Positions 13,273 through 37,053 of a stretch of DNA of 62,907 nt are shown here, piece after piece. Under the pieces are notes generated by a model. That model had not been told where the DNA came from. It saw only the letters and a program-made list of their open reading frames with translations, and made no database searches. Source of the stretch: an uncultured Candidatus Saccharibacteria bacterium (GTDB lineage: Bacteria > Patescibacteriota > Saccharimonadia > Saccharimonadales > CAIOMD01); contig CAZMHJ010000001.1 in NCBI GenBank assembly GCA_964566075.1, forward strand, positions 9,890-72,796. The letters run 5' to 3'. Made by a program: the position numbers and the translations under genes. Each line of letters begins with the position of its first letter. Position 1 is the stretch's first letter.

Positions 13273-13290
13273 ATCTGTTGTATATGGTAA

Positions 13291-13321
13291 CAAAACAAAA
13301 CAAAAACCCCAAAAAGGGGTT
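13291..13321 (-). terminator. Intrinsic terminator between tRNA-Leu and tyrS
   Basis: Minus strand reads AACCCC-UUUUU-GGGGUU followed by UUUGUUUUGUUUUGUU, ending about 20 nt before the tyrS ATG. Confidence 0.65.
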
Positions 13322-13328
13322 CTTGTTT

Positions 13329-13413
13329 TGGTACCGCGGAGAGGACTTGAACCTCCACGTCTTGCGACACTAGCTCCTAAGGCTAGCGTGTCTACCAATT
13401 CCACCACCGCGGC
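13329..13413 (-). tRNA. tRNA-Leu (anticodon UAG), class II with long variable arm, CCA encoded
   Basis: GCCGCGG-UG-GUGGAAUUGGUAGACAC-G-CUAGC-CUUAGGA-GCUAG-UGUCGCAAGACGU-GGAGG-UUCAAGU-CCUCU-CCGCGGU-ACCA. The cloverleaf was folded by hand. Discriminator is A73. Confidence 0.9.
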
Positions 13414-21519: not shown

Positions 21520-22875
21520 TTATTCTTTTGATAAAAAGCTGTTGAGTGCACTGCGCACATCAGCCATTTGATGCAATTCTTTTGGCACTTTACTACCGCG
21601 AATTTTTGGCCCGATTGCATCGGTAAAGCCTAGTTTCTTTGCTTCGGCAATTCGTTTATCTGCCCATGGTACGTGCCGTATTTCACCGCTCAAGCCTACC
21701 TCACCAAACACGACGGCATCTTTTTTGAGCTGCATCCCTTTTGAAGCTGAGGCTATTGCCATACAAATCGCTAAATCTGCTGCAGGCTCGGTGATTTTCA
21801 TGCCACCCACAATATTAATATAAATATCTTTATCGGCAAGTTTTAGTTTAGTGCGGCGTTCGAGCATGGCGACTAATAAATTAAGTCTATTTAAATCAAT
21901 GCCTGCTGCAGCTCGTTTTGGATACCCGTAATTGGTTGTGTTAACGAGTGCTTGCACCTCTACTAAAATTGGGCGCGTTCCCTCTAATGTAGCCAGTACT
22001 ATCGAACCATCACTGAGTTGTCGTTCGGCTAATAGTGCTGCAGATGGATTATCGACTACTTGCAGACCCGTATCAACCATTTCAAGGATAGCTGCTTCGT
22101 TGGTAGAACCAAACCGGTTCTTGATACACCTCAGCACTCTAAAGCCACCGTAGCGGTCACCTTCGAGCTGGAGCACTACATCCACAGCATGTTCTAATAC
22201 CTTTGGCCCGGCAATACTACCCTCTTTAGTTACGTGACCGACTAAAATCAGGGCAGTCGTCGCTTGCTTCGCGGCTGCAGTCAGTAACTGCGTGCTATTG
22301 GTTACCTGGCTCACACTACCTGGAACTCCAGTAATTTCAGCGGCGGCAATCGTTTGAATTGAATCAACAATCACTAAATCATACTTATCGGTTGCGATGG
22401 TTGCCGCGATATCGTTTGCGCTGGTGCTACTGACAATATGTAAGTTATCGGCTAAAGCGCCCAGGCGTTGGCCACGCAAGCTCACCTGCTCTGGCGACTC
22501 TTCGCCACTCACGTATAGTACTTGCACTTTCTTGGCTGCGTTATACGCCAGCTGTAATAACAATGTACTTTTACCGATACCCGGTTGGCCAGCAATGAGT
22601 ACCACACTCGCTGGTACAATACCGCCACCTAACACTTCATCGATATCGGCGATACCAAGACTCAAGCGCTTGGTGCCTGTAAATGATTTTTTATCAAGCG
22701 AAACGGGCTTTAGTACGTTGCCACTCGCCAAAGCTTGCTCGGTTTTACTGCCACTGCGCAAATCGACCTGTTGCTCGAGCGTATTCCATGCACCACATAT
22801 GCTGCACTTGCCTGCCCAGCTCGAATGATTCGCGCCGCAGGCACTACATACATATGCCACTTTCGTCTTCGCCAT
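21520..22875 (-). CDS. radA: DNA repair protein RadA
   Basis: Zn finger CSACG...CSICG, GQPGIGKST, KNRFG and a Lon-like C-terminal domain. Confidence 0.93.
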   Translation of the reverse strand: MAKTKVAYVCSACGANHSSWAGKCSICGAWNTLEQQVDLRSGSKTEQALASGNVLKPVSLDKKSFTGTKRLSLGIADIDEVLGGGIVPASVVLIAGQPGIGKSTLLLQLAYNAAKKVQVLYVSGEESPEQVSLRGQRLGALADNLHIVSSTSANDIAATIATDKYDLVIVDSIQTIAAAEITGVPGSVSQVTNSTQLLTAAAKQATTALILVGHVTKEGSIAGPKVLEHAVDVVLQLEGDRYGGFRVLRCIKNRFGSTNEAAILEMVDTGLQVVDNPSAALLAERQLSDGSIVLATLEGTRPILVEVQALVNTTNYGYPKRAAAGIDLNRLNLLVAMLERRTKLKLADKDIYINIVGGMKITEPAADLAICMAIASASKGMQLKKDAVVFGEVGLSGEIRHVPWADKRIAEAKKLGFTDAIGPKIRGSKVPKELHQMADVRSALNSFLSKE

Positions 22876-22905
22876 ATCTCTAGTTTAACAGATAGTTAAT
22901 TTAGA

Positions 22906-23382
22906 TTATTTTGGTTCGTAGTATATCCTCATCAAATACCCATAGGTACCAAACTCGTCGATTCTGCCATGAAGTATCACATCATAAACATTCAAACTTT
23001 GAAGGGCTTCAACTTCCCTTGCGGCATAATCAAGAAAAGAGGATATACCAATATTAGGGTCTTCATCCATATCCAGCTCAAATAAGTGAACCTTCTGATT
23101 ACTTCTGATACGACTATTGTAAAGCCTATTCTCATCTGTTGGTGAGTTGCTTTTAAGAAGCAGGGCATCGTCTTGAATTTTCTTATCAGATTTTCTTAGT
23201 TTATACACCTCTAATTCAAGTGTTGGCCATGTACTATCATCCACTGCATTTGAAAGATATAAACTTACAGAACGAGCATATCCAACAGATTTAACATCAT
23301 GGGCAAGACTTTTTAGCATATCAGGTAGTGATACTTTGCGATTGGTGTTCCCTGCTTGAAAATAATGTGTTTTCATATTCAT
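22906..23382 (-). CDS. Candidate cognate immunity protein of the RHS toxin, 158 aa (hypothetical)
   Basis: ATG at 23380-23382 overlaps the RHS TAA stop (TAATG). The protein starts MNMKTHYFQAGN... It has no TM segment and no known motif. The track's longer start at 23451 lies inside the RHS gene. Confidence 0.55.
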   Translation of the reverse strand: MNMKTHYFQAGNTNRKVSLPDMLKSLAHDVKSVGYARSVSLYLSNAVDDSTWPTLELEVYKLRKSDKKIQDDALLLKSNSPTDENRLYNSRIRSNQKVHLFELDMDEDPNIGISSFLDYAAREVEALQSLNVYDVILHGRIDEFGTYGYLMRIYYEPK

Positions 23383-26300
23383 TACAATACTACTGCACAC
23401 ACCGGTGCCGCAACTAAACAACCAGGACTCAACACTTTTGCACCCCACCATATGGCTATTAGAACACTAGCCGCTGCAGCCGTACCACCCGCAGCTTTTT
23501 TTGCCTGCGGGCTTACGCTCGGTAGACCTCCCGATGGAAGTGATGGTGGCCCTTTTCTATTATTCTTGTCTTTCGACTCCCTTGATTGTCTTTCACCCCG
23601 AATTTTTTCATTATACTTTTGTTTTGCTTTTGCGCTGTTCCAGTCCTTGGAGTTGTATTTATTCTTACCCTCATTCCACGCTTTAAGCTCCTTGAAGTTT
23701 AGCTTTTTCTCCTGTGCCTGCTGACGACCTCTCTGTGCCCTTTGACCAGTAAGATCATAATCAGTTATGGGATTATTCACATAGGCATATGCATTGTCAG
23801 TACCGCCTTCTATTGGATCAACTTGTGCAAATCGCCCTATGCTTGCTAGATATACACGTGCTCCCATTTGTACCACAGGGATGCTGAAGTTTGATTCAGA
23901 TAGTTTCTGGTGTTGCCCAATGTACGAGTAGCTTGCGCCCCTATCGGCATTAGTCGGTGCTAATTGGCCATCAATCAATTCACCAAACGGCCCTGTAACA
24001 TTTGTGCTCAGTAATGAGCCATCTGCTTTCGTCATCGCAAAGTTATCGCCATGTATATTTGGCAAGCTAAACGTCATTTGCGCACTTGGGTCACTCGCGT
24101 TTGGTCGAATTGTAACAAGCACGTTACCAGGCAGTGTCACATACTTTTCGACTACGTTCCATGCATTGTCTCGTATGAAGTCTGGTGTGTCACCACTACC
24201 CGTAAAGCCATAGAAACTATCGCCAGCTGCACTCCATGTAAAGTTTGCAATACTGTTGATATATCGCCCCATGATGCGACCTTGTACATCTCGGGTATAA
24301 TAGGTTGCGATTCCATTACCAGTATCAGAAGTGTACTGAACCACACCCGTGTTTCTATCTGAGGCATCATATGCAAATCGTACTGGCAAGTTTGATGTTC
24401 CGATTGCTGTTGTATTACCGTGGTCATCATAGTCAACAACCGCAAGTGATGGGTCTGAGCCTGCTAGTAATCTGTCGGCGCTATCGTAACAATAGTTCGT
24501 TGTTTTACCATTTATTGTTTGAGTAGTGCGGTTACCATTTTTGCCAGCATTTAAGTTTGCACTCGTCTGTGCGCATTGTGCGGCAGTAGCAGTACCAAAC
24601 CCATAGCTATAACTATTAGTACCGATTGTGGCGGCTGTTAATCTCCCCCCACCGTCATATGTATAGCTCTTTGCTAAACCATTTTCGGTACCACTTATTA
24701 CATCGCCACTTACAGTTCTATTAACTTGGTCACTGATGATTGTTGAGCCATCGCCAAGGGTATATGATAATCCGTTCATACGACCAAGGTTGTCTCGTGT
24801 AATAGAGCCTAGCTTCTGCTGATTAGCAGTTGGGTACGCAACGCTTGCAATTCGGCTAAACGTATCATACGTTACCGTAGCCAATACAACTGAGTTGAGT
24901 GATTGAGATACTAGGCGATCGTAATCATCGTAAGTGTATGTTTCTGTACCAAGAGGACTAGCACGACTTACAAGATGACCAGCATTGTCATACGCACTTG
25001 TAGTTACGTTGCTATGTGTGTCTTTGTACGATATAACCCTACCGAGCAAATCTGTCTCAACTATAATAGATCCGTTTTGGTCTGTCGTACTAGTAACTAG
25101 TGGGTTACCGTTAACGGCATAGTTGCTACTTATCGTGCGGCCTGCTCGACCGTTTATATCAGGTATGACCGTCGAGATAACTCGCCCACGCGCATCGTAA
25201 TTTGTGCAAGTCCATGGGTCATTATTAAACTTTGTCGCCACTACCCTGCCTGTTGAATCATATATCGTTTCGCTAGTTCGCGGAGTTTGAGGGCCAACCC
25301 CATCTGGGTCAGGTTCTATCTTGCCCTTTGCGAAGCCAGCTTGGCTAACAGGTGACGAGTTGGCATCACATTCATTCTTTCGAACCTCAGTAGCGCCGTA
25401 GTACAGATAGGTATAGGTATTACCGCCAGGCATTGTCTTACTTGTTTGTCGCATTAAACTACCCGCTTGATAAGGCTCGTATGTGTAGCTTGTTGTTAGG
25501 TTAAGTCCGCCAACGTCCTCAGTTACTGATTTAGCCTGTGCAAGCTCGGGTTGTGCGCCATAATCTGTCTTTGTAGTACTATCACCTGTTTGGCTATCAA
25601 ATACCTTACTGCTAGTTGTAAGTGCGTAGACTGGCTTTACGAAAGTTGGCCTGCTTGTTCCAAGTCCGGCGTTTGTATCGGTAATTCCAGGTCCAGACAA
25701 CCATAGTTCTAGTGCTCCTTGGTTATATCCCGTATGGCCATACGCTAGCTCAATTCTATAGGGTTTACCAGCCTCGGCAGTAAATGTGGCAGTCTGCCGC
25801 TTTTGGGTTACTCCCTCTGAACGGGTTCCAAGATTATTAATTAAAACGTTATCGTTAACCGTTAATCTTGCGCCATCGTCGTTCCATATATTGTATGTAT
25901 ATGTTCCTGATTGTGGGAACGTAACCGTTCCAGTAGCTCTAAAACCGTAGCCGTAGTATTTCGCATCGGGATTTTTTACAATGTTCGTTGCCCATATTGC
26001 AGAGTTATCATTCCCAAAAATTACGAGATTACCGTCGTTCTGCATAACTAAACTTCCAGAAGGACGGCCAGATGTTGCAGAAGCCCAGGTTGCCACGTTA
26101 TTACCGTTATATATTACTAAGTTTCCATCACCCTGAAGTACAAGCCGGCAATTTGCGCCACTTGTATTTGATGCCCAAACTACACCACTTGGACCGTAGA
26201 TAACCAGATTACCATCAGTCTGCATTATGAGCCTAAACTGGCCATCTTCTGACCATATCGACTGATTTGTACCAAGTGTGCCGCCGACCAATAATGAGGC

Positions 26301-29300
26301 TGCGTTTGCTGTTTGATTATCGGGAGTGAATGGTACGGAGTCTAGTCTAAAATCTCTACCAAGCCAGCTCCTATCCTTGTTAGGTGTTATGCCTGTCGTG
26401 TGATATTTTGGTGCCCCTACAAGGCTTCCACCATCTTTTGTAACCACATAATTAAACCAGCTGACAGCTAGGCCATTAATGCCCTCGTCATAGTTTGTTT
26501 GGGTATGTGGAACTTGGTTAGTGTATGTCGCAAGCGGTTTACGGTCTGTACCAAACCATACAGATGGCGCCGGCCCATAGTTATCAATTGGTAAATCGTT
26601 TGCGTCGTAAATGGTTGTCGACTTTAACCCAGTTGCATCAGTCGATGATAACAATAAGTCTTTTACGGCGTCCCACTCTTGTTGTGTTGCGTTACCGTCT
26701 TTACCATAGTTTTTAACCGTTCTGTACAAGCTGTCGTATTCGACTCGTTGGCTATAACCTTTAGGCTCAACCTCTCCAACCTCATTAGTTTGGGTCGCAT
26801 TATTGAGGTAGTTATAGTTATGTTTTGCCCTAAAGCCACCTTCGGTTGCGCTTGGTAACGTAATTGAATTTGCACGGCCAACGACATCATAGTCTATTTG
26901 GCTTGTAACCGTACTGTTATCTTGTCTAATTCCAGCTGCTACCGCATCATATGCGAGTGATGACTGTTGTTGCACAAGCCGACCGAGTGCATCATATCCG
27001 AGTGTCGTTGTCACGCCACCTGGGCTTACAATACGAGCGAGTTGACCATTTTTATAGTACAAATAGCTTAGTTGTTGGTCTGTTGTTTTAAAAGCACAAA
27101 GCATATTAAAAGGTGGCTGGCTGTCATAGCCATTTGGTACCGAACCACAATTATTATCACCAGAATAGTACAATGTACCCATCCTTGTTTGGTCAGCGCC
27201 ATCCTTGATAGTTGTTAAGCGCGCTGGGGTACCATCGTAACCATATATGAGCGCCGTTGGCTTTCGGTCATCATTTGGCGTACTCGTACTCGTTAGTTGC
27301 CCCGCACTGTTAAAGGTATAGGTACGCCCATCACTATCTATTAACGTGTACGTGCTATCCGCATTCTTTGTTAAGAAGCCGTACTCATTAACAGGAGGCG
27401 TGTATGCACTACCATTCCATTTATATTCGTGCTGATCACCTTCGGCATCATATAAAATGACGCTTTGCGTTTGAATGTTTGCATAATCATACGCTAAATC
27501 ACCATCAGCATCTACACTCATTTGCCAGCCGTTTGGTAATGGATTAATTTTGGTGCTAAGCCATGCACTCGGAATAATTTGCTCGGCCACCGCACCCTTC
27601 ACGTAAAGCCCAAATGAAGCCGCTCCAAGATTCTCATAAAATTCTGCGGTTATAGGAATTGACTGCCCAGACGTTAGATTAACAGCCGGGCCGTATCCAA
27701 TACCTGAGCCAGTATCTTTCCAGTCATCCTGGTATGCAGAAGTGCCACCGTTTAGATATATTCTTGAACCATCATCGCTACTGGTGCCAAAGTAATAGGT
27801 TCCCGTGACCGGAGCGGTGAAGTAGCCAGTATACCGGGCTGCGAAATTATTAATTGGACCATATGGCATCGGTGAGCCCTCGCCCCAATTAAAGTTCATA
27901 TTTGTTTCACGCCTGGTTAAGAATGAGCTCATAGGGTCAGTTGGGAACGTTGGCGAGACTCCAGCTGAGGCACTAAAGTATCGGCCCATCAATCCATTAT
28001 TCTGCGATACGGTTTTGGGTTCGGTTCGTAGCCAATTTGTTTGAATCTGCTGCTCTACACCATCTATTCTTACGGCAACATAAAGATATCCATTCCCTGT
28101 TGCCTCGATATAGTCCATTTGCATCGGTACGATTTGACCCTCACTAAAGTAGCGAGAACCCATAGTCCAATTACCGTTACTACAACAACCTGCGCTAACA
28201 GCCGGTGTTGATTCGTTATTTAGATATAGTGCATAGTAATCATCTGCCGTAAATCCAAACTGATAATTACCGGACTTTGGTGCAATAAAGTAGCCCTTGA
28301 GTCGCATCGAAAAATTATCGTTATTAACGACTCCAGCCGCAGGCGTGCCCGTGTTCCATGGGAAGTTTAGGTTAGTCTCAATGCGACGAATCGCAGAGCT
28401 ACCCGACCACGAAGTGTTATTGTAATATTCCGCTGTTAAACCGGGTTTGCTGCGATACGGCGAATTGTAGTCAAAGCTTAACCCTATGTTGCCACCTAAT
28501 GCAGACATTGTGTGTGTGCCTGCACTTGTCACAACGTTACCAGTGGCTAAATTGACATCAACAGGCCCTCCGTCGTCAAAGCTTGCTGCGCTATCATTAC
28601 CCAGTCGTGCATCGTACTTAAATGATCGAGTCCATACGTTGATCGGTGACCCCCATCTATCACAGGTGCCACCAACATATTGGCCACACGAATCATGAGA
28701 ATAAACATGCCAGTAGTATGTTACACCGTCTTGTAGAACACCTTCTGGTACTGTCCATTGGGTAGAGCTTATAAGACCTGAGTTTATAACCGTGCCTGTC
28801 TCACCATCTTGACCAGTCGACACCCTAAAGTAGTACTGTATCGGGTCACCATCAGGGTCAGTACTTGGATTAACCTGCAACATTGGTTGATCAGTAACGA
28901 CAACTTGTTTATCAGCTGGTGATAGTGGCGTAGGTACTGAAGGAGTGCTATTGAAGGTATATTCAATCCAGCTATTATCGGCGTCAAAACCTTTCCAGGT
29001 TAAATATGCTCGCTCCTCACCATTTAGGATATACGTCGGGCCAGTATCACCAATATCTGCTTGCCTTTGTAGCAAAGCGGTCATACTAATATTGCCGTTA
29101 GTCCCAAACCATGCGCTGTGGCGCGGGCTTCCCCAATCAATACAGTTATAGCCCCAACAAGCGGCACGCGAAACTTCAGTGTATAAACCTTCTGTTGTGC
29201 CGATGCCAGACCTCTTATTTATAATCAGATTTGCACTTAGAATTTGCTTGCCAGGAAGTTCTGGCATCGAAACCCAAAAGACGGTTCGCCAGCCTTTCCA

Positions 29301-30479
29301 GCCATTGTTCGATAAATACCCAGCGTTCATATAACAAGAACTTGACGAACAAACATAGCCATCAGACTTATAGGCAGTATAGTTCCAGCTTACATTTGAG
29401 CTTCGACGCCACGATGGGTCGATAATTATCGGAAAATCAGCAGTTTTTTGTTGTTTAAGCCATCCCCCATCGAGTGTTACGGTAAGAACCCCATTCTTGT
29501 ACTCTTGGGTTGCCTTAGTTTCGCTAATAGGACCTTGTGTTTGGAGTGTAACAGATAACGGCGCGAGCTGCTGCTCGGTACCCTCTACATCAAAGCCACC
29601 ACTAGCATTCTTTTTTAAATTTGCACCGGTAACTTTAAATGCATAGCTCGTTGTCGCATTTGCAGTTTTAATAATGATATCTTCCTTAAGAGCCCCACCT
29701 TTAACCGTGTAGCGTAAATCGACACCATTCCATAGATCTTTATAGGTAACTGTTTGCTTACCATCCTCAGTCGTTACCACAGGCGTAACCGATTTTGCGG
29801 CGCCCACAGGGAAATATGCTAACTTCGTATTACCTGATTCAATACGAATCATGCCTACCTTGTCATCTGATTTTGCAAAACGAGCTTGCCAATCGTTTGC
29901 GGCAAGCTTGTAGGTATCTAGTTTTTGCGTCTTACCCTTTACGAACGCGATTGCTTTGCCGACAACATTTGTACTGTCAGCTGCATTTGTATCTTCAACA
30001 AGCGTATTGTCAATTTTTTCCCACTTACCATTTTTTTGATAGTTAACTCTATCAAAATATTTCTTTACTGTTTTTTGACCATTACCAAGATCAAATGATT
30101 CAGAGTTCTCGGTTCGCTCAGATACTATTTCCGCTTGCTTTGTTGGTGCACTTTGTTTAGTTGTAGGTGAAGGTGGGTTTGATCCAAGTGTAGTTCCCTT
30201 GCCGATAGCGCCATTTACCTCAGCAGCTTTTTGAGAAGCAACCGCTAGCGGTTGGGGAGTTTTTTTACCTGCAGCCAGAGCCTTATCGGTACTCGCAGCA
30301 ATAGAAAGAGCCAGCGAAGCGACCATGGCGACAACAAAAAACAGCGCCGTGAGACGCTGTTTTTGGGAGTTAACCATTCTTAATGGGCGCACAAAGGCGC
30401 CATTCACCACGTTAAATAGGGACACTTTTGGAATTTTGGCGGTGTTTGTGTGGATGCGCTTCAAATGCAAATGTGGCAT
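23382..30479 (-). CDS. Giant secreted RHS/YD-repeat protein (2,365 aa) with three PA14 domains, a bulb-type lectin domain and a short variable C-terminal tip
   Basis: N-terminal signal/TM segment (LTALFFVVAMVASLALSIAAS). PA14-like segments at about aa 680-815, 828-975 and 1505-1605. Three QxDGNLVIY/F repeats at about aa 1396-1500. Many YD repeats (YDxxGR...). The RHS core ends YAYVNNPITDYDLTGQ, followed by 119 aa. Confidence 0.9.
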   Translation of the reverse strand: MPHLHLKRIHTNTAKIPKVSLFNVVNGAFVRPLRMVNSQKQRLTALFFVVAMVASLALSIAASTDKALAAGKKTPQPLAVASQKAAEVNGAIGKGTTLGSNPPSPTTKQSAPTKQAEIVSERTENSESFDLGNGQKTVKKYFDRVNYQKNGKWEKIDNTLVEDTNAADSTNVVGKAIAFVKGKTQKLDTYKLAANDWQARFAKSDDKVGMIRIESGNTKLAYFPVGAAKSVTPVVTTEDGKQTVTYKDLWNGVDLRYTVKGGALKEDIIIKTANATTSYAFKVTGANLKKNASGGFDVEGTEQQLAPLSVTLQTQGPISETKATQEYKNGVLTVTLDGGWLKQQKTADFPIIIDPSWRRSSNVSWNYTAYKSDGYVCSSSSCYMNAGYLSNNGWKGWRTVFWVSMPELPGKQILSANLIINKRSGIGTTEGLYTEVSRAACWGYNCIDWGSPRHSAWFGTNGNISMTALLQRQADIGDTGPTYILNGEERAYLTWKGFDADNSWIEYTFNSTPSVPTPLSPADKQVVVTDQPMLQVNPSTDPDGDPIQYYFRVSTGQDGETGTVINSGLISSTQWTVPEGVLQDGVTYYWHVYSHDSCGQYVGGTCDRWGSPINVWTRSFKYDARLGNDSAASFDDGGPVDVNLATGNVVTSAGTHTMSALGGNIGLSFDYNSPYRSKPGLTAEYYNNTSWSGSSAIRRIETNLNFPWNTGTPAAGVVNNDNFSMRLKGYFIAPKSGNYQFGFTADDYYALYLNNESTPAVSAGCCSNGNWTMGSRYFSEGQIVPMQMDYIEATGNGYLYVAVRIDGVEQQIQTNWLRTEPKTVSQNNGLMGRYFSASAGVSPTFPTDPMSSFLTRRETNMNFNWGEGSPMPYGPINNFAARYTGYFTAPVTGTYYFGTSSDDGSRIYLNGGTSAYQDDWKDTGSGIGYGPAVNLTSGQSIPITAEFYENLGAASFGLYVKGAVAEQIIPSAWLSTKINPLPNGWQMSVDADGDLAYDYANIQTQSVILYDAEGDQHEYKWNGSAYTPPVNEYGFLTKNADSTYTLIDSDGRTYTFNSAGQLTSTSTPNDDRKPTALIYGYDGTPARLTTIKDGADQTRMGTLYYSGDNNCGSVPNGYDSQPPFNMLCAFKTTDQQLSYLYYKNGQLARIVSPGGVTTTLGYDALGRLVQQQSSLAYDAVAAGIRQDNSTVTSQIDYDVVGRANSITLPSATEGGFRAKHNYNYLNNATQTNEVGEVEPKGYSQRVEYDSLYRTVKNYGKDGNATQQEWDAVKDLLLSSTDATGLKSTTIYDANDLPIDNYGPAPSVWFGTDRKPLATYTNQVPHTQTNYDEGINGLAVSWFNYVVTKDGGSLVGAPKYHTTGITPNKDRSWLGRDFRLDSVPFTPDNQTANAASLLVGGTLGTNQSIWSEDGQFRLIMQTDGNLVIYGPSGVVWASNTSGANCRLVLQGDGNLVIYNGNNVATWASATSGRPSGSLVMQNDGNLVIFGNDNSAIWATNIVKNPDAKYYGYGFRATGTVTFPQSGTYTYNIWNDDGARLTVNDNVLINNLGTRSEGVTQKRQTATFTAEAGKPYRIELAYGHTGYNQGALELWLSGPGITDTNAGLGTSRPTFVKPVYALTTSSKVFDSQTGDSTTKTDYGAQPELAQAKSVTEDVGGLNLTTSYTYEPYQAGSLMRQTSKTMPGGNTYTYLYYGATEVRKNECDANSSPVSQAGFAKGKIEPDPDGVGPQTPRTSETIYDSTGRVVATKFNNDPWTCTNYDARGRVISTVIPDINGRAGRTISSNYAVNGNPLVTSTTDQNGSIIVETDLLGRVISYKDTHSNVTTSAYDNAGHLVSRASPLGTETYTYDDYDRLVSQSLNSVVLATVTYDTFSRIASVAYPTANQQKLGSITRDNLGRMNGLSYTLGDGSTIISDQVNRTVSGDVISGTENGLAKSYTYDGGGRLTAATIGTNSYSYGFGTATAAQCAQTSANLNAGKNGNRTTQTINGKTTNYCYDSADRLLAGSDPSLAVVDYDDHGNTTAIGTSNLPVRFAYDASDRNTGVVQYTSDTGNGIATYYTRDVQGRIMGRYINSIANFTWSAAGDSFYGFTGSGDTPDFIRDNAWNVVEKYVTLPGNVLVTIRPNASDPSAQMTFSLPNIHGDNFAMTKADGSLLSTNVTGPFGELIDGQLAPTNADRGASYSYIGQHQKLSESNFSIPVVQMGARVYLASIGRFAQVDPIEGGTDNAYAYVNNPITDYDLTGQRAQRGRQQAQEKKLNFKELKAWNEGKNKYNSKDWNSAKAKQKYNEKIRGERQSRESKDKNNRKGPPSLPSGGLPSVSPQAKKAAGGTAAAASVLIAIWWGAKVLSPGCLVAAPVCAVVL

Positions 30480-30544
30480 TTAGTGGGCTCCAGTTGTTAT
30501 GTAAATATTCGTCGTTGGTTAACTCCACCAATGACTTAAGCCGA

Positions 30545-30572
30545 ATTATAAGCAAAATTTCAGAAAATGCAA
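30545..30572 (-). promoter_or_regulatory. Sigma-70-like promoter for the RHS gene
   Basis: Minus strand reads TTGCAT (30572..30567), a 16-nt spacer, then TATAAT (30550..30545). Confidence 0.45.
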
Positions 30573-30696
30573 GTACTTTTTTGTCAAATTATATTTCACA
30601 AGTCCTAGGGGTGAGTACTATGAGCCATATAGACCATGTATAAAACACCGACGAGAAGCAGTGCTAATAATACTACCGTTCTGCGCCATTCTTGGT

Positions 30697-31317
30697 TCAT
30701 TGCTGTACTCCGATTGGTTTTGCGATTACAACAAGTCTATCAACTGGGTTCCAGAGTGGTGTACACGTATAGAGTGTCAAACGGGTATCAGTTGTTGGCG
30801 CTTCGACCTCAACTTGATGAGCTGTCACAACTTTTTTCTCGGTAACGGTGTAGTGATAGGTTGTCGAACCCCATTTAAGGTAAATATCATCACCGATTTT
30901 TATCTTATCAAGGTGATAAAAGGGCTGTACTACACTTGGGTTATACGAAAAACGATGGCCAACAATAACCGTATTTCCACCTTTGTTGGGTGTAGGAGTG
31001 GCCGGTCGATGCCATAAGCCTTTATCGACCGTTTTTTCTGCCGTCCCCTCGATAACTGGCGCTAGGGCACCAATGGCTGGAATGTATAGTTGATCAGGGT
31101 TTGTCATACCTGTGCCGGCATCTGACTGTCCTGATTCAGTTGTGGCTGAAGACTCAAACTGTGTTTGTGCTCCACTACTCGCAAACCCAGGCCTTGCGAC
31201 GGTAGCGGGGCCATTAAAAAAGTAATCGAGTTGCGGTATAAGTGGCGCCAACAATATAAAAACTGCAAGAATAATGACAAACACGGTAAGCATATCGTTG
31301 AGAGACCGGTGTGTCAT
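30697..31317 (-). CDS. Sortase family transpeptidase
   Basis: N-terminal TM, catalytic His (VIVGHRF), TLYTCTP (TLxTC) and a downstream Arg (VDRLVV). It starts 25 nt after the adhesin stop. Confidence 0.88.
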   Translation of the reverse strand: MTHRSLNDMLTVFVIILAVFILLAPLIPQLDYFFNGPATVARPGFASSGAQTQFESSATTESGQSDAGTGMTNPDQLYIPAIGALAPVIEGTAEKTVDKGLWHRPATPTPNKGGNTVIVGHRFSYNPSVVQPFYHLDKIKIGDDIYLKWGSTTYHYTVTEKKVVTAHQVEVEAPTTDTRLTLYTCTPLWNPVDRLVVIAKPIGVQQ

Positions 31318-31342
31318 ACTCTTGCAGTTCGTATGTTTTTAT

Positions 31343-34300
31343 TTATCGACGGCGACTAACCGCGAATGCTCCACCAAGCATTGTAATAACAAGGATATAT
31401 CCAAGTGCAGTCAACGAACCAGAGCCTGTATCAACAAGCACTTGTGGCTTTTCTACCGTAGTTGTATGCGTATCCGTTGCACACGCTGTAACCACATTAT
31501 TCTTTGGCAACTGGATTGAATCAGTCGACACCTTAAGTAGACTAATTTCTGGATTTACTTCTTCTTGCTGTGGTTCTGCGCCACAGGTTTTCACGGTGTT
31601 AACTATTTGAGCACCTTCGCTACCGGCAGGTATCGTGTAGTTTGCAGTGTAAATCCACGTTTCGTTTACATCGAGTTTGCCATCACTATTAGTATCACCA
31701 GATTTGTAGACTCCATTGCCAGCAACGTTGTCAGCTACAGTAATGGTATCAAGCGGTTCGTCACCCGTGTTGGTAACCGTAAAGGTGTACGTAACCGTGT
31801 CACCAACTTTAGCGTTTGCTGGACCTGTCTTCACGACCTTAATTGCTGGGTGTAACACATCGAGTGTATGCGTATCTGTTGCACACGTTTGCGTGCCTTC
31901 TTCGTCATCTTCGTTGTAGCTATAGTCGCGATAGATGTTCCAGTTATCACCATAGTAGTCACCACAGGCTGTTACCGTGTTATTAACATCTGCGACTTGA
32001 GGAGTAGGAATAGTATATTTTACCGTACAGTATGCCCAATCGCCCGGATCAAGCCATGTAACTCCGCCACAATCTGCAGTTCCAGCAATATCATCAACAA
32101 CACTTAGGTTATCGATATAGGTATCACCAGAGTTATACACCCAGAAAGTATAAGTAACGGTGTCACCTTCGTGAGCCGTAGCAGGGCCACTCTTGTACAC
32201 TTCAAGGCCAGGGTGTTGATTATCGTTGTTTGTTATCTTACAGGTCACCGAATCACCAAGTGCCAACGTTAGTTCGTTGCCATTAAGCTGTCCGCCAGTA
32301 CACCACCATTGTCCTTGCGTGTAACCGTCTGGGCCTGATTCGCTGAGTGTGTAAGTAACGTTTGCTACCGCAGTTACCGACTCTACACCATTTAGACCAT
32401 TTCCGCTAATAACATCGCCATCATCAGATGGGGTGGCTGAAAGCGTCCAGTCACTTGGGTCGTTTTCGCCATTATTATTGTTAATGACCGTTTTCTTAAG
32501 CGTAAGCTTAGGAGCAATTGCAGTGTTTGTGACAGTACAAGTCTTAGCATCACCAAGCGCTACAGAACCATCACAATCTTCTGAATATGCGACCGAGTAT
32601 CCGTTGTGGCTACCTTCGCTCACTTCGTATTCACCAACGTTCAACGTAACATCAGTACCAGCTACACTACCGGCAAACTCATCATTCGATACATTATTGC
32701 CATCAACGTACATAGTAAAGTTACTAGCAGTTGCCGTTCCACCAGTCTCGCCATTTATGACGTGTTTTACCACTGTTAATTTAGGCTGTACTGCAGTGTT
32801 TGTAATTGTACAGGTATAATCAGCACCGAGTATCAATGCAAGCGTACTTTTTACGATGCTTGTTACGTTCGTCTTGTTGTTAACACAACTCCAGTCACTC
32901 GCTGTAAAGCCTTTTACAGGGCCTGATTCGCTGAGCGTGTAGCTTCCTGCGTTAACATTACCACTCACTGGTGTAGTGCCTGATAGGTGCGTTGGTCCGT
33001 CAGCAGTAAGTGTCCATTCGCTCGTACTCACCTTTGCACCATACAGATTTTCACCAAGTTTTTTAACAAGTGTTAATGCGGCACTATTATCATCGTTTGT
33101 TGCAGTACAAGTAACTTCTTGTCCGCTTGTAATTGTAACTTTATTATCTGATACTTTTGCGCCAACACAGTCCCAACCAGTAAGTGTATAGCCATCTGGA
33201 CCTGTTGACTCACTGAGCGTATAAGTACCTGCTTTGAACGAGTCATTACTTACCGCGCCACCAGCGCCACTGATGGTTGTAGGGCCAGTTGCTGTCAGTG
33301 TCCAATCAGTTGGGTCTGCAGTACCACCATTATTGTTAACTACGTTTTTTACTAGTGTTAGCTTTGGTGCCTTGTCGTCATTTGTAATCGTACATGTCTT
33401 AGTTTCGCCATTAGAAATCGAAACATTAGTACAACCATCGTATGATGTTGCATAACCATCTTTGTTCGCTTGTGTTTCGGTTACGCTGTAGGTGCCTTTA
33501 GGCAGATTGTTTATCTGGTTTTCACCATTTGCATTAAACCATTGGGCAGCGCCACCGTTAACTGAAAAGCTAAAGTCTGTTGCACTTGCCGTGCCGCCGT
33601 TATCATTCTTAACAACTTTTTTAACGATGAGCTTAGCTGGTTGTGTAGTGTTTGTAATTGTACAAGTAACGTTTTGGCCAAGTGCAACTATTAGTTGGTT
33701 AGCTTGGAGTGTTCCACCGTTACACGACCAGGCGCTTGCGGTAATACCAGCAGTAGGACCTGTCTCGCTAAGTGTGTAGGTGCCAGCATTCACATTACTG
33801 TTACTTGCGCCACCCGCACCACTTACAACAGTTGGGCCAGTTGCTGTCAATGTCCACGCTGTTTTTGTAAGGCCACTATTAAATTGATCAACCAGATTCT
33901 TAACTAATGTTAGACCCGGAGCATCATCATTGTTAGTAATAGTACATGCAGTCGTCTGGCCGTTTGCAAGTGTGATTTTACCGTTTGTAACAGTTACGCC
34001 ATTCGTACATGTCCAAACACTTGCCGTATAGCCACTTGGGCCACCGGTTTCACTAAGAGTATAGGTGTCAGCCTTAAAATTACTACCACTGGTTGCGCCC
34101 GCACTACCAGTTGCGCCAGAGAGGTTGGTTGGTGATGCAAGCGCACCGGTTGCCTTGAGTGTCCAGTCGGTTGCGTTGGCGGTACCGCCATTATCTTTAA
34201 TTAAATTCTTGATGAGCGTTAGCGCTGGTGCTTTATCGTCATTCGTAACAATACAAGTCTTAGTTTCTCCTAGAGCAATAGTGCCAGAACAATCGGTGCC

Positions 34301-35860
34301 AAGCGACTTAGTGTATGCATTATCGGCATTTTCGTTAACACTGTATGAACCAGGGTTTAATGTCACCGTTGTGCCGTTTTCATCACCTGCAAAACTAGCA
34401 TTACTAACATTAGTACCGGTAACATTCATCGTAAAGTTAGCGGCTACTTTAGAACCACCGTTATCATTTACAACATGCTTTTTCACGATGAGTTTTGGCG
34501 CAACATCACTGTTGGTAATTGTACAAGTGGTTGTTTGGTTGTATGACACAACAACGTTCGTACATGTGTTACCAGTCATTTCGTAACCACCAGTATTTGG
34601 GTTAACCTCTGTTACTGTGTATGTACCCGTAGGTAATGTAACTGACTTAGAGCCATTGTTGCCAGTTGTATTAACAAAAGAATACTGCGTGCCATCAACA
34701 ATAAACGCAAAGTCAGCAGCTTTTTTGGTTCCACCATGAGTATTATTAACGACTTTATTAACCGTTAAGGTACCTTTTGTAGCTGTATTAATAAACTTAC
34801 AAGAAACAATATTATTTGCCGCTATTTGAATACCAGTGACTGCATCGCCGTTCTTTGAACCATTCGTGGCAGCACCTGTACAGCTTGCTGAAAGCAACGT
34901 GTAGCCTGTTTTTTGAGTCTCATTAACCGAGTAACCACTGGCAGCGTCAACCTTAACTGCTGGAGTCTTACCAGTCGCGTCGGTCTGGGTTGCTGCTGGG
35001 TTTGAGCCACCATTAATATCAAACGTCCAACCAGCACCTGCGAGCGTCTGATCGTTTGTTGTATTTAGGTTACCATCTGCATCGATATATTTAGTTGTTG
35101 TGATTGTTCCGCCACAAGTCTGGCTTGCAAAAGTAGCAAGACTGGCTGCGAGTTGGCTAAAGTCAGTTGTTATAACATCAGAAGTAAGTACATTACCTGT
35201 GTTTGCATTTGGGCCAGAGATAGCCTTGAGTCGGTCTAGCGAGCCACCCGTAAGACCAATACCAAGTGCGAGCATACGTGTACCGCCATTTTTTACAGTA
35301 TTAGCAGCAATAATTGCAGGATCAAGATGAGCGTTTGGTTGGCTCGTTGTTACACCGCCAACGGTATTGCTTGTTGTTGGGTCGCCATCGGTAGCAAAAA
35401 TAACAAGATTGGGGTTAGAGGTACCACTCGAAAAGGTACTATTAGCCTTAATAAGACCGTCTTCCCAGTTTGTATACCCACCACCAGTGCTAACAGAGTC
35501 AATTGCGTTATTAACCGTAGTAGTGTTGCTGGTGAAATTCTGAAGAACGGTCGCACTGGTTGCAAAACGAGTAACTGAAAATTGCGTAGGAGTTCCACTT
35601 AGCGCATTTGTAAATGCTTTTAAAGCAGCTTTAAACGAGCTCATTTCACTTGAGCTAATGCTATCTGAGTTGTCGATAACAATCGCAATGTCTAGACCAC
35701 ACGCCTGACTTAGCGTCGGGTTAGCAGCGGGAGTTGTGTTCGAAGCGGCGTTGGCCGTCCCCCCTAATAATGTAAGTGGCCCGAATTGAGACACCACAAA
35801 AAGTAACGTTAGTATTGCCCACCTGGCCCTACTAATAGGGTTATATGCTCGCAGCTTCAT
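31343..35860 (-). CDS. Sortase-anchored surface adhesin, 1,505 aa: vWA domain, about 10 tandem Ig-like repeats, 2 DUF11-like repeats and a C-terminal sorting signal
   Basis: The start is set to ATG 35858-35860 (AAGGAGG upstream; MKLRAYNPISRARWAILTLLFVV... is a signal peptide). MIDAS motif VIDNSDS. Repeats end in TCTITN-like motifs. The C-terminus is LVDTGSG plus a hydrophobic stretch plus RRR. Confidence 0.88.
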   Translation of the reverse strand: MKLRAYNPISRARWAILTLLFVVSQFGPLTLLGGTANAASNTTPAANPTLSQACGLDIAIVIDNSDSISSSEMSSFKAALKAFTNALSGTPTQFSVTRFATSATVLQNFTSNTTTVNNAIDSVSTGGGYTNWEDGLIKANSTFSSGTSNPNLVIFATDGDPTTSNTVGGVTTSQPNAHLDPAIIAANTVKNGGTRMLALGIGLTGGSLDRLKAISGPNANTGNVLTSDVITTDFSQLAASLATFASQTCGGTITTTKYIDADGNLNTTNDQTLAGAGWTFDINGGSNPAATQTDATGKTPAVKVDAASGYSVNETQKTGYTLLSASCTGAATNGSKNGDAVTGIQIAANNIVSCKFINTATKGTLTVNKVVNNTHGGTKKAADFAFIVDGTQYSFVNTTGNNGSKSVTLPTGTYTVTEVNPNTGGYEMTGNTCTNVVVSYNQTTTCTITNSDVAPKLIVKKHVVNDNGGSKVAANFTMNVTGTNVSNASFAGDENGTTVTLNPGSYSVNENADNAYTKSLGTDCSGTIALGETKTCIVTNDDKAPALTLIKNLIKDNGGTANATDWTLKATGALASPTNLSGATGSAGATSGSNFKADTYTLSETGGPSGYTASVWTCTNGVTVTNGKITLANGQTTACTITNNDDAPGLTLVKNLVDQFNSGLTKTAWTLTATGPTVVSGAGGASNSNVNAGTYTLSETGPTAGITASAWSCNGGTLQANQLIVALGQNVTCTITNTTQPAKLIVKKVVKNDNGGTASATDFSFSVNGGAAQWFNANGENQINNLPKGTYSVTETQANKDGYATSYDGCTNVSISNGETKTCTITNDDKAPKLTLVKNVVNNNGGTADPTDWTLTATGPTTISGAGGAVSNDSFKAGTYTLSESTGPDGYTLTGWDCVGAKVSDNKVTITSGQEVTCTATNDDNSAALTLVKKLGENLYGAKVSTSEWTLTADGPTHLSGTTPVSGNVNAGSYTLSESGPVKGFTASDWSCVNNKTNVTSIVKSTLALILGADYTCTITNTAVQPKLTVVKHVINGETGGTATASNFTMYVDGNNVSNDEFAGSVAGTDVTLNVGEYEVSEGSHNGYSVAYSEDCDGSVALGDAKTCTVTNTAIAPKLTLKKTVINNNNGENDPSDWTLSATPSDDGDVISGNGLNGVESVTAVANVTYTLSESGPDGYTQGQWWCTGGQLNGNELTLALGDSVTCKITNNDNQHPGLEVYKSGPATAHEGDTVTYTFWVYNSGDTYIDNLSVVDDIAGTADCGGVTWLDPGDWAYCTVKYTIPTPQVADVNNTVTACGDYYGDNWNIYRDYSYNEDDEEGTQTCATDTHTLDVLHPAIKVVKTGPANAKVGDTVTYTFTVTNTGDEPLDTITVADNVAGNGVYKSGDTNSDGKLDVNETWIYTANYTIPAGSEGAQIVNTVKTCGAEPQQEEVNPEISLLKVSTDSIQLPKNNVVTACATDTHTTTVEKPQVLVDTGSGSLTALGYILVITMLGGAFAVSRRR
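32216..35125 (-). repeat. In-frame tandem array of about 10 divergent units of 85-105 codons inside the adhesin gene
   Basis: Recurring ...(K/A)L(T/I)(L/V)VK..V.NDNGG(T/S)...W/F...G(T/S)Y(T/S)(L/V)(S/N)E...C(T/I)(I/V)TN... blocks. The DNA motif gtaattgtaca recurs. Confidence 0.75.
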
Positions 35861-36090
35861 AACCGCCTCCTTTAAATTGCAAAAATACAGCCAGCCTGTT
35901 CTGTCCGATTTTTCAGACAATGAGCTAGTTGTATTTTTATTTCTCCGATACCCACACAGAGGAGGTTTCGCCACTTGCTCCTGCTATACCTGGCGACCAA
36001 GTATTTGGTATAGCTATCAACGCGCTCTGTTATTTCTAAATATATTCCTTTTTTTGCAATATGCAACCATAAGCTTAATAAAAGTAAGTA

Positions 36091-37053
36091 TTATTGAGTT
36101 ATTGCATTCACGCGACTGTCGAGGCTCTGCGCCAGCCCCTGCTGTTGCAGCGCTAAACTATTGCGTGTTTCTACAATAGTATTGTATTGATCGATAAGTT
36201 TCTTGACTGCAATTACTTCTACGTTATAGCTGTTAACACGACTGTTATAGCTCGGAACCTGGTTGTTGTATGCCCGCGTTTGACCCGATTGTAATAATTG
36301 CTCCATTTGTGCTTTTTGAGAGGTCAATGACTTTTCAAGCGTATCAAGATCGGCTTCTCGTTTGGTGATTTCCGCTTTACGGAGCACTAAATCTGCATCG
36401 TATTTCTGTACTTGATCAGCGATATCTTCAAACACTTTTTTATATGAATTTGCCAATGTGACCACTTTTGATCTATCACTAAAATACTTTTCGTAGTACT
36501 GTTCAAGTTCGGGGCCAAGATTAGCATATTCGGTGCCAAGTATAGAATGAAGCTCGTTATCTTGTTCGCCTGGCTCAGATTTTTGATAACTAGCCATGAC
36601 ATCAGTTAAATGTGTGTCATTAATACGCTTATAGGCAGCATTAAGCAGTTCGTCAACATGTGCTTTTTCCTTAGCAGATAACCGTTGATATGCTGCGTGC
36701 AGCATTTCGTGAGCTGCAGTCACTTCTTCTACACCTTGTAGTTTAGCGTCTTCAACTTTAAACACGTAAATATTCGTGCCGGTATAACAACCAAGCACGA
36801 TGGTCTGTTCGGTAGATTTACATTCGCTGTTAAACGTAGAGCGATCGGATATTTTAGGGTCATTGACATATAGCAGCCTCCTACCGTAGGTATTCATACC
36901 ACTATTAGTCGCCAGCGTTGCAACTTCAGCGGGTGCTGTGTAATTACGCAACCTAGACCAATCGTAAAGATTATATCGATTTGTCCATACCAAACCAGCC
37001 GCCGTAAAAACCGTGACTAATACAAGCACTGACCCAAGTAATTTCTTTGGCAT
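36091..37053 (-). CDS. Membrane-anchored hypothetical protein, 320 aa, with HExxH motif and coiled-coil C-terminal half
   Basis: N-terminal TM (LLGSVLVLVTVFTAAGLVW). AAHEMLHAAY is a zincin-like HExxH. The C-terminal half is heptad-rich. Confidence 0.6.
   Translation of the reverse strand: MPKKLLGSVLVLVTVFTAAGLVWTNRYNLYDWSRLRNYTAPAEVATLATNSGMNTYGRRLLYVNDPKISDRSTFNSECKSTEQTIVLGCYTGTNIYVFKVEDAKLQGVEEVTAAHEMLHAAYQRLSAKEKAHVDELLNAAYKRINDTHLTDVMASYQKSEPGEQDNELHSILGTEYANLGPELEQYYEKYFSDRSKVVTLANSYKKVFEDIADQVQKYDADLVLRKAEITKREADLDTLEKSLTSQKAQMEQLLQSGQTRAYNNQVPSYNSRVNSYNVEVIAVKKLIDQYNTIVETRNSLALQQQGLAQSLDSRVNAITQ

Follow-up and report, generated by a model that had tools for sequence, protein, structure and literature searches.

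Background

Among described toxins, those closest to the locus reported here are the Sec-dependent Rhs polymorphic toxins of Gram-positive bacteria, such as the WapA proteins of Bacillus subtilis and Streptococcus suis (for the latter, PMC12704120). These proteins begin with a Sec signal, continue through YD/RHS repeats to an Rhs core and end in a variable toxin of small size; the immunity gene lies directly downstream, and the producer is a monoderm that lacks a type VI secretion system (T6SS). The current study concerns an RHS gene in a 62,907-nucleotide window (the whole stretch of DNA that was analysed; positions 9,890 to 72,796 of contig CAZMHJ010000001.1, assembly GCA_964566075.1) from an uncultured Candidatus Saccharibacteria bacterium. 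The gene occupies positions 23382..30479 of the minus strand as an uninterrupted open reading frame (ORF) of 2,365 codons with domain matches in Pfam and NCBIfam, and its predicted product has a comparable layout, with a candidate toxin as its tail and a candidate immunity gene behind it. Unlike WapA, it has no cell-wall-binding repeats detectable with Pfam, and it carries a pair of PA14 domains before the RHS shell and a PA14/lectin head within it.

By every feature testable in this analysis, the shell is that of an RHS family member, and related shells occur in several other systems. The T6SS Rhs effectors RhsA (7q97), Tse5 (8cp6), Salmonella bongori Rhs (8qjc) and Tse15 (8uxt) are the best matches to the predicted shell model and share its two-Asp core, and Tse5 is the only sequence-level match in the PDB to the YD region. 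They differ from the Saccharibacteria protein in that its shell wall carries a two-domain insert of ~290 residues and in that it has a Sec-type signal instead of a PAAR, VgrG-binding or clade domain; because Pfam and NCBIfam detected none of these defining N-terminal domains, classification as a T6SS effector was rejected. Teneurins and the bacterial teneurin-like protein (TLP; 9ifo; PMC13018210) also combine a YD shell with surface exposure and variable adhesion domains, but the unit inserted here is of PA14/lectin type, and Pfam detected no FN-plug, NHL beta-propeller, Tox-GHH or TcB beta-propeller/SpvB region, so that assignment as a teneurin-like protein or Tc component was also rejected.

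Individual modules of the protein have relatives outside the RHS proteins. The lectin matches the monocot mannose-binding lectin (MMBL) domains of lectin-like bacteriocins (putidacin L1/LlpA and pyocin L1/L2; E 1e-22 to 1e-21, with a partial match to NCBIfam LLB_putidacin), and in both cases a lectin domain would direct a killing protein to its target cell. Those bacteriocins, however, are stand-alone proteins of ~28 kDa with tandem MMBL domains, whereas the present protein, at 2,365 aa, has a single MMBL domain that lies within one of its PA14 domains; with one such domain and an NF033557 score of 86.5 bits against a cut-off of 275, it was rejected as a lectin-like bacteriocin. The tandem PA14 pair has counterparts in 6qdi and in the anti-sigma factor RsgI3 of Clostridium thermocellum (6qe7), where the pair is a polysaccharide sensor of a signalling protein rather than a module of a toxin.

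CdiA proteins form beta-helix filaments that are exported by two-partner secretion in diderm bacteria, and their known receptor-binding regions recognise outer-membrane proteins, not glycans. Their fold and export route are thus unrelated to those considered here, but they share the principle of a separately exchangeable receptor-binding region that sets the target range, combined with a C-terminal toxin that has a cognate immunity gene. On these comparisons, the Saccharibacteria protein would work like the WapA-type Rhs toxins and, in its two-cassette logic, like CdiA.

In the literature searched, the only mention of PA14 together with RHS in Saccharibacteria was one sentence of Starr et al. 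2018 (PMC6031116), which calls a 2,487-aa protein of Candidatus Teamsevenus rhizospherense a "possible secreted toxin" and gives it RHS, YD, PA14 and galactose-binding domains and an adjacent immunity gene. This protein very probably belongs to the same family; the sentence does not extend to topology, lectin insertion, cassette exchange or distribution. The family is therefore already present in databases in uncharacterised form, while a shell-inserted, module-swapping lectin head with three-level nesting is undescribed in the literature searched.

Domain organization and predicted fold

Pfam was run on the whole protein and then on separate fragments, with cut-offs of 24 for PA14 (PF07691) and 32.4 for B_lectin (PF01453). 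The features of the gene and of the ORF that follows it are, in the order in which they are read:

30273..30479, minus strand: predicted N-terminal export signal (aa 1-69), from a Kyte-Doolittle scan and sequence reading
28470..30272, minus strand: disordered Pro/Lys/Thr-rich linker (aa ~70-115) and all-beta stalk (aa ~115-600)
28020..28451, minus strand: PA14a (aa 677-820; Pfam PA14 64.3 bits, GLEYA 34.6 bits)
27555..27992, minus strand: PA14b (aa 830-975; Pfam PA14 61.4 bits, GLEYA 33.0 bits)
26460..27524, minus strand: YD-repeat block 1 (aa 986-1340), the first part of the predicted cocoon (RHS_repeat 40.8 bits, three stretches)
26298..26450, minus strand: N-terminal strands of PA14c (aa ~1344-1394; GLAVSWFNY...GAPKYHTT...PFTPDNQTANA), contiguous with the rest of the domain in lectin-less homologues
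25971..26297, minus strand: bulb-type lectin (MMBL, beta-prism II; aa 1395-1503), in a loop of PA14c ("site B")
25605..25970, minus strand: C-terminal part of PA14c (aa 1504-~1625), including NDDGARL (Pfam PA14 56.9 bits, profile positions 38-138)
23961..25559, minus strand: YD-repeat block 2 (aa 1641-2173), the second part of the same predicted cocoon (RHS_repeat 44.0 bits, four stretches)
23742..23960, minus strand: Rhs-associated core (aa 2174-2246; TIGR03696 38.1 bits, cut-off 32.5)
23385..23741, minus strand: C-terminal tail of 119 aa (aa 2247-2365), a candidate toxin
22906..23382, minus strand: downstream ORF, a candidate immunity protein (158 aa from its ATG, or 156 aa from position 23376; soluble, isoelectric point 5.8)

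The original prediction, made by reading the DNA without database searches, had named three PA14 domains, a bulb lectin, YD/RHS blocks and an Rhs core, and all of these calls were borne out by Pfam, NCBIfam and PDB sequence searches, at levels far above what chance would give. In the whole-protein scan, PA14 reached 162 bits (E 9e-48) over three stretches, accompanied by GLEYA, DUF7948 and RHS_repeat (PF05593, E 1e-12), and the fragment scan passed PA14 three times with the scores listed above; NCBIfam added TIGR01643 (43.5 bits) in the YD region. B_lectin scored 39.5 bits as a fragment and 30.5 bits in the whole-protein scan, the latter just below the cut-off. Compared by itself with PDB sequences (phmmer), the lectin matched over the whole domain with E-values of 3e-31 to 1e-15, the matches including SCAfet, putidacin L1, pyocin L1/L2 and GNA. 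Its three QxDGNLV(I)Y/F repeats were likewise found as predicted: QTDGNLVIY (aa 1420) and QGDGNLVIY (aa 1449), which are canonical QxDxNxVxY motifs, and QNDGNLVIF (aa 1480). The insert consists of recognisable lectin-type domains rather than shell strands. What did not hold was the view of four carbohydrate-binding modules interleaved with the RHS shell, as only the composite PA14c/lectin unit lies inside the shell, while PA14a and PA14b form a tandem pair before it. This pair (aa 680-972) spans the whole of the tandem-PA14 structure 6qdi (residues 3-290 of 295, E 8e-19), PA14b also matches 6qe7, and the conserved DD motif is kept in all three PA14 domains.

At the N-terminus, a hydrophobic segment at aa 41-65 (core aa 43-63 by Kyte-Doolittle) is followed by ALA|AG, and an alternative start at Met35 would give the export signal a conventional short n-region. 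The predicted Sec-type segment is compatible either with a cleaved signal or with one kept as a signal-anchor. The stalk, which includes DUF7948 (aa 188-298; Pfam 30.6 bits) and an FnIII-like domain, is conserved across the family described below. Its AlphaFold2 (AF2) model is all beta, with a predicted local distance difference test (pLDDT) score of 78 and values below 50 in the first 53 residues, and a Foldseek search with this model returned only weak, generic matches to chains of immunoglobulin/FnIII domains (E 1e-5 or worse, template modelling score <=0.18).

The shell was modelled with AF2 from aa 1047 to 2246 using 31 homologues, with a pLDDT of 83.3 and a predicted template modelling score of 0.75. 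Complete T6SS Rhs cocoons were the top Foldseek matches (8qjc, 7q97, 8cp6 and 8uxt, E about 1e-33), followed at lower ranks by the bacterial teneurin-like protein, Tc BC components and teneurins. The alignments run over ~1,270-1,320 columns, with 1,200 residues in the query and ~1,040 in the targets, which implies ~925 matched positions and ~275 residues present only in the query. Since this surplus equals the size of the PA14c/lectin unit, the two YD blocks form a single shell to which the unit is an addition, and the predicted structure thus shows one cocoon. In the core, D2221 (VDP) is invariant and D2242 (YDLTG) and G2245 are nearly invariant in the family alignments; by homology, D2221 and D2242 would be the catalytic Asp pair of a self-cleaving protease.

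A lectin nested in a PA14 domain

The original prediction had placed a third PA14 domain at 25665..25967. A PA14 domain is indeed present there, but this segment holds only its C-terminal two thirds, and the N-terminal strands lie upstream of the lectin. Approximately 50 lectin-less homologues make this clear: in them, "GLAVxWYNY", "GAPKLHTTG" and "PIT" run straight into "DGYGFxATGK", whereas in the present protein the lectin splits these segments. A profile of the contiguous PA14c from such homologues aligned with the family profile of PA14a at positions 5-148 versus 12-141 (hhalign; probability 98.9%, E 1.6e-17). Because PA14c is contiguous in lectin-less homologues and matches PA14a from end to end, the lectin must be nested inside PA14c. 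Pfam alone did not recognise the N-terminal part, as its match to an artificially spliced PA14c from which the lectin had been removed reached only profile position 34. The alignments therefore show a three-level topology at the level of sequence, in which the lectin is predicted to sit in a loop of PA14c and PA14c between the two YD blocks. The C-terminal part of PA14c is modelled with a pLDDT of 82-93. The head most likely points outward from the cocoon, given that it consists of folded lectin-type domains and that the lumen must hold the tail.

Two cassettes exchanged between close relatives

The closest relative of the locus is found in a Saccharimonadales metagenome-assembled genome (MAG; locus L002). 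The window is syntenic with this MAG, the two sharing the order ClpC, a 320-aa ORF, a SpaA/VWA adhesin, a sortase, the RHS gene, RadA, PIN-TRAM and PBP1A, and with RadA 97% identical, the producer is a Saccharimonadales bacterium. Between the two RHS proteins, identity is 80-98% in stalk and shell (84-98% in YD block 2), but it falls to 28-44% in PA14c, where L002 lacks the lectin, and to 10-20% past the core. The L002 tail, a Gly-zipper-like hydrophobic segment followed by ~90 aa, is unrelated to that of the present protein, and the small ORF before RadA differs as well. As identity drops at the head and again at the tail and downstream ORF, each has been swapped in place, and the pattern shown by this pair is that of two independently exchangeable cassettes, one comprising the head and the other the tail with its putative immunity gene.

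The tail and the downstream ORF

The tail consists of a very basic segment (isoelectric point 10.4), a Gly/Pro/Ser linker and a conserved hydrophobic end, WWGAKVLSPGCLVAAPVCAVVL, which is conserved with its two Cys residues in P0003, P0010 and L021. The only other compared locus that matches the tail over its full length is L001, whose RHS protein (P0003) has a tail 67% identical; the ORF downstream of P0003 is 38% identical to the ORF downstream of the present gene (E 5e-37). The latter has no Pfam match, and its ATG overlaps the stop codon of the RHS gene as TAATG. The public gene call for this ORF is a protein of 137 aa (P0227). The 158-aa reading is conserved with the L001 homologue from its third residue onward, which makes the longer form more likely.

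Across the family, tails are short and diverse, and some have annotated toxin domains of nuclease type (PF15650, PF15526, PF12106 and HNH). Among 63 loci, similar downstream ORFs were accompanied by similar tails in 16 of 18 pairs, compared with a background of 121 of 1,953 pairs, and between the present gene and its L002 counterpart, tail and downstream ORF had been exchanged jointly in place. Such co-variation, together with annotated toxin tails, is the pattern of polymorphic toxin/immunity pairs, insofar as it can be read from sequence. Many tails of the family (P0002, P0004, P0007, P0019, P0022, P0024, P0026, P0027, P0030, P0036, L002 and others) open with a Gly/Ala-rich hydrophobic segment ("IPGPIGM...AAYAAAGD", Gly-zipper-like) that is followed by ~90-100 variable residues; this segment may be a shared membrane-entry module before the toxin proper.

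Distribution and common plan of the family

A protein search yielded 62 clusters of proteins of 2,000-2,800 aa (E <1e-125). When one genome per species was scanned, 528 stretches proved to encode a relative, and the best 78 loci among them were examined. Nearly all of the 62 clusters follow a fixed plan, in which the N-terminal stalk and the PA14 pair are followed by two YD blocks with PA14c between them, and then by the core and a short variable tail, and the same architecture is conserved in the examined species loci (more than 70 species genomes). Database entries name these proteins "PA14 domain-containing protein" or "RHS repeat-associated protein". The architecture had been predicted to be unusual; this is true of the insertion point of the lectin, which is special to the present protein, but the combination of PA14 and RHS is a trait of the large family as a whole.

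The majority of the best 78 of the 528 loci belong to Saccharimonadales or other Saccharibacteria MAGs, and 16 belong to Actinomycetota (L003, L010, L011, L024, L028, L031, L051, L060, L067, L071-L073, L075 and L077-L079). The latter come from Arcanobacterium ihumii, A. pluranimalium, Actinokineospora, Allorhizocola, Kribbella, Streptomyces, Raineyella, Jatrophihabitans, Amycolatopsis, Saccharothrix, Actinosynnema, Gandjariella and one uncultured Actinomycetota MAG. Their guanine-cytosine content is native (0.59-0.72, with 0.48-0.50 in Arcanobacterium), and they are therefore not contamination. In a rough neighbour-joining tree of the YD block 2 region, without support values, several actinobacterial sequences fall among those of Saccharibacteria, and those of Pseudonocardiales form a separate clade. 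This distribution suggests repeated transfer between the epibionts and the phylum that hosts the cultivated ones.

Nine MAGs carry two loci each (L005 and L020, L007 and L036, L018 and L026, L030 and L057, L034 and L049, L035 and L044, L056 and L059, L073 and L078, L077 and L079), and in some of them the two differ in their heads, as in L005 with a lectin and L020 without one. At ~7 kb per copy, and with two copies in several genomes, the gene is a notable investment for the small genomes of Saccharibacteria.

The head as an insertion hot spot

A B-lectin was found in 11 of the 62 clusters and in eight of 74 loci, at three distinct insertion points. The first lies before the "DRKPLAAY" strand that leads into PA14c, ~30 residues ahead of this domain (L007 and L023; near aa 1330-1430). 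The second follows the first PA14c strand and is used by the P0010 group, L004-L006, L052 and both Arcanobacterium species. The third, ~45 residues beyond the second, occurs only in the cluster of the present protein. When aa 1331-1650 were compared exhaustively with 1.84 billion cluster representatives by HMMER, there were 16,939 matches, of which only those of the protein's own cluster were full-length (1-320), the remaining top matches being unrelated multi-lectin proteins. In addition, the first insertion point is occupied in at least ten clusters by Beta-prop_PLL beta-propellers of ~280 aa with DUF346 repeats (P0003, P0008, P0012, P0019, P0034 and P0047 among them), and P0055 has an FG-GAP propeller. 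The PLL-propeller calls are precomputed annotations, as PF26607 is absent from the local Pfam, while the DUF346 and FG-GAP repeats were confirmed locally.

The QxDxNxVxY motifs are retained in the present protein and in most lectin-bearing homologues, with lectin identities of 44-55% to the lectins of other members. PA14c, on the other hand, is 51-59% identical to that of lectin-less members versus 26-31% to that of lectin-bearing ones. That PA14c is closest to lectin-less members even though the lectin resembles those of others points to module shuffling rather than simple descent.

The allele and its genomic setting

An identical protein is on record as a JGI "RHS repeat-associated protein" (P0001), and the allele was found at >=99% identity in wastewater, sludge, bioreactor and freshwater metagenomes from several studies. 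Both lectin junctions are spanned at >=99% identity by independent contigs from at least five studies, in DNA and RNA-library assemblies from wastewater and sludge. The possibility that the lectin insert is an artefact of assembly or binning that joined two genes, which might be raised because the closest relative lacks the lectin and no other cluster has one at this position, has a probability close to nil in view of these contigs and of the continuous reading frame, and an assembly chimera is ruled out by the spanned junctions. Additionally, three runs labelled as metatranscriptomes contain 98% of the sampled words of the allele, which suggests that it is transcribed. Contigs from metatranscriptome runs break with short alternative tips at 23714..23743, 24574..24603, 22993..23022 and 28996..29025, one of the breaks falling exactly at the core/tail boundary (nt 23742); such breaks could stem from strain variants that co-exist and have other tails, or just from noise in the assembly graph. 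A promoter and terminator scan of 22700..31400 found sites no more numerous than in shuffled sequence, none of them usable.

The gene lies in a chromosomal core region of this wastewater bacterium, with DnaE, RecG, GatA/B, TyrRS, HisRS, trigger factor, NusA and a PilB-like ATPase encoded in the window. The further features noted are:

30697..31317, minus strand: sortase, adjoining the RHS gene directly upstream, alongside the SpaA/VWA adhesin
31343..35974, minus strand: adhesin of 1,543 aa with a VWA domain, about nine SpaA-type prealbumin-fold repeats and DUF7507, and with an LVDTG-type sorting signal, a hydrophobic segment and RRR at its C-terminal end
36091..37053, minus strand: ORF of 320 aa without a Pfam match, with an N-terminal hydrophobic segment, HEMLH (HExxH) and a long Gln/Lys-rich, probably coiled-coil tail; the L002 counterpart is 86% identical
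13329..13413, minus strand: tRNA-Leu, overlapping the 5' end of the listed TyrRS ORF (12019..13407, minus strand; GTG start at 13407)

The 1,543-aa protein is a Gram-positive-style pilus-tip or surface adhesin, and the 320-aa ORF possibly encodes a membrane-tethered metalloprotease. Given the tRNA-Leu overlap, the true TyrRS start is probably further downstream. The sortase and SpaA/VWA pair beside the RHS gene is kept in L002 but not in the other family loci. The RHS protein itself was rejected as a sortase substrate, having no LPXTG-type signal and a sortase neighbourhood confined to the lineage that it shares with L002.

Proposed mechanism and alternative explanations

Taken together, the protein is probably, although far from certainly, a polymorphic RHS toxin that resembles WapA, is exported by Sec, carries an exchangeable head for glycan binding and has a cognate immunity gene. 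Under this model, the protein would be exported by Sec, and the single cocoon of its two YD blocks would hold the 119-aa tail inside it, probably once self-cleavage at the Rhs core (D2221 and D2242) has taken place. The cocoon would be displayed on the beta-sandwich stalk with PA14a/b and the PA14c/lectin head exposed, and the PA14 modules and lectin would bind mannose- or rhamnose-type glycans in the envelope of a monoderm cell nearby, which could be a rival Saccharibacterium or a host actinobacterium, so that glycan binding would fix which cells are engaged. The tail would then be released into or onto the target membrane, where its hydrophobic end may insert, and the 158-aa product of the adjoining downstream ORF would protect the producer. 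In this scheme, the target and the steps of export, self-cleavage, glycan binding, toxicity and immunity are inferred, as is the outward orientation of the head. Glycan-directed docking before toxin delivery, as put forward in the original prediction, is a reasonable mechanism to propose, and it gains indirect support from the head being a hypervariable hot spot of module swapping and from the tail co-varying with the downstream ORF.

Several observations weigh against this model. With respect to the head, the third lectin motif ends in Phe instead of Tyr, sugar binding is not universal among PA14 domains, and the lectin portion of the AF2 shell model has low confidence (pLDDT 32-52), a value attributable to the homologues placing the lectin elsewhere in the alignment. 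With respect to the tail, no Pfam family or recognisable toxin fold was matched, and its hydrophobic C-terminal end might anchor the protein in a membrane instead. Word-index searches gave no match for the tail and only the ORF itself for the downstream ORF, but they also missed the known L001 relatives, the queries being too short for the tool. The immunity pairing for this type of tail is seen at one other locus, and at L021, where the shared part of the tail is mainly the hydrophobic end, the downstream ORF is unrelated. The RHS protein was found to have no cell-wall-binding or sortase signal that could keep it on the producer. Finally, the contigs from RNA libraries do no more than suggest transcription, as they are long and of even depth and may derive from DNA carry-over.

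The first alternative keeps the same machine but aims it at the actinobacterial host. The head would dock on mannose- or rhamnose-type envelope glycans of the host, a membrane-active tail would injure or permeabilise it in the course of parasitism, and the immunity gene would guard only against self-intoxication. The Saccharimonadales affiliation of the producer (from the synteny and RadA identity described above), the occurrence of the family in Actinomycetota with interspersed sequences in the rough tree, and the conserved hydrophobic segment at the tail end are all compatible with such a role, as is the finding that glycan-binding surface proteins are essential to the epibiotic growth of a cultivated Saccharibacterium (PMC10633639). 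However, immunity genes and the fast turnover of tail and immunity are a signature of conflict among relatives carrying the same system, and free-living Actinomycetota carry the family yet have no host. We regard a purely host-directed function as unlikely, although it deserves to be kept in mind.

It is also conceivable that the protein is mainly an adhesin, in which the cocoon would be a rigid, teneurin-like scaffold for the PA14 and lectin modules and the hydrophobic end an anchor in the membrane or envelope rather than a toxin. The four lectin-type modules and the long beta-sandwich stalk would suit this role, the tail has a hydrophobic end and no known toxin domain, teneurin and TLP cocoons are structural relatives of the shell, and the neighbouring genes encode a sortase and a pilus-type SpaA/VWA adhesin. 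This neighbourhood, however, is a feature of one lineage and not of the family, and the RHS protein has neither an LPXTG-type signal nor a charged tail past its hydrophobic end. Further points against it are the Rhs core conserved with both catalytic Asp residues, the hypervariable tails with annotated nuclease toxin domains in some members, and the downstream ORF that co-varies with the tail, and we consider this explanation improbable.

PA14 domains and bulb lectins often bind eukaryotic glycans, and Tc BC components are structural relatives of the shell, both of which could be taken to indicate a Tc-like toxin against insects or protists; yet this is very improbable, considering that the protein and the neighbours examined showed neither a TcA-like partner nor a TcB beta-propeller/SpvB region, that the tail has just 119 aa, and that the adjacent candidate immunity gene and the turnover of cassettes point to bacterial targets.

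Implications

Little is understood of how RHS toxins locate and enter target cells when no type VI system fires them, and how Saccharibacteria select and exploit their hosts is likewise open. For both questions the present family provides a testable entry point, a cocoon whose lectin head and candidate toxin/immunity tail are both visibly exchangeable. A bolder extension of the toxin model, which we hold to be rather doubtful as a whole, is that the PA14c/lectin head is a plug-in receptor-binding cassette that sets the cells engaged and that the family has passed in both directions between epibionts and the actinobacteria that host them. If this is true, repeated recruitment would have brought different lectin folds (the bulb lectin at three sites, PLL-type propellers and FG-GAP propellers) to one and the same exposed spot on the cocoon, and these proteins would be a shared, fast-evolving weapon and a determinant of host range in an arms race between epibiont and host. 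Cultured Arcanobacterium species carry lectin-bearing homologues, which makes the idea testable in the laboratory. If the head does bind defined envelope glycans, it would represent a determinant of target range for a monoderm RHS toxin and a marker with which the partners of uncultured epibionts may be predicted.

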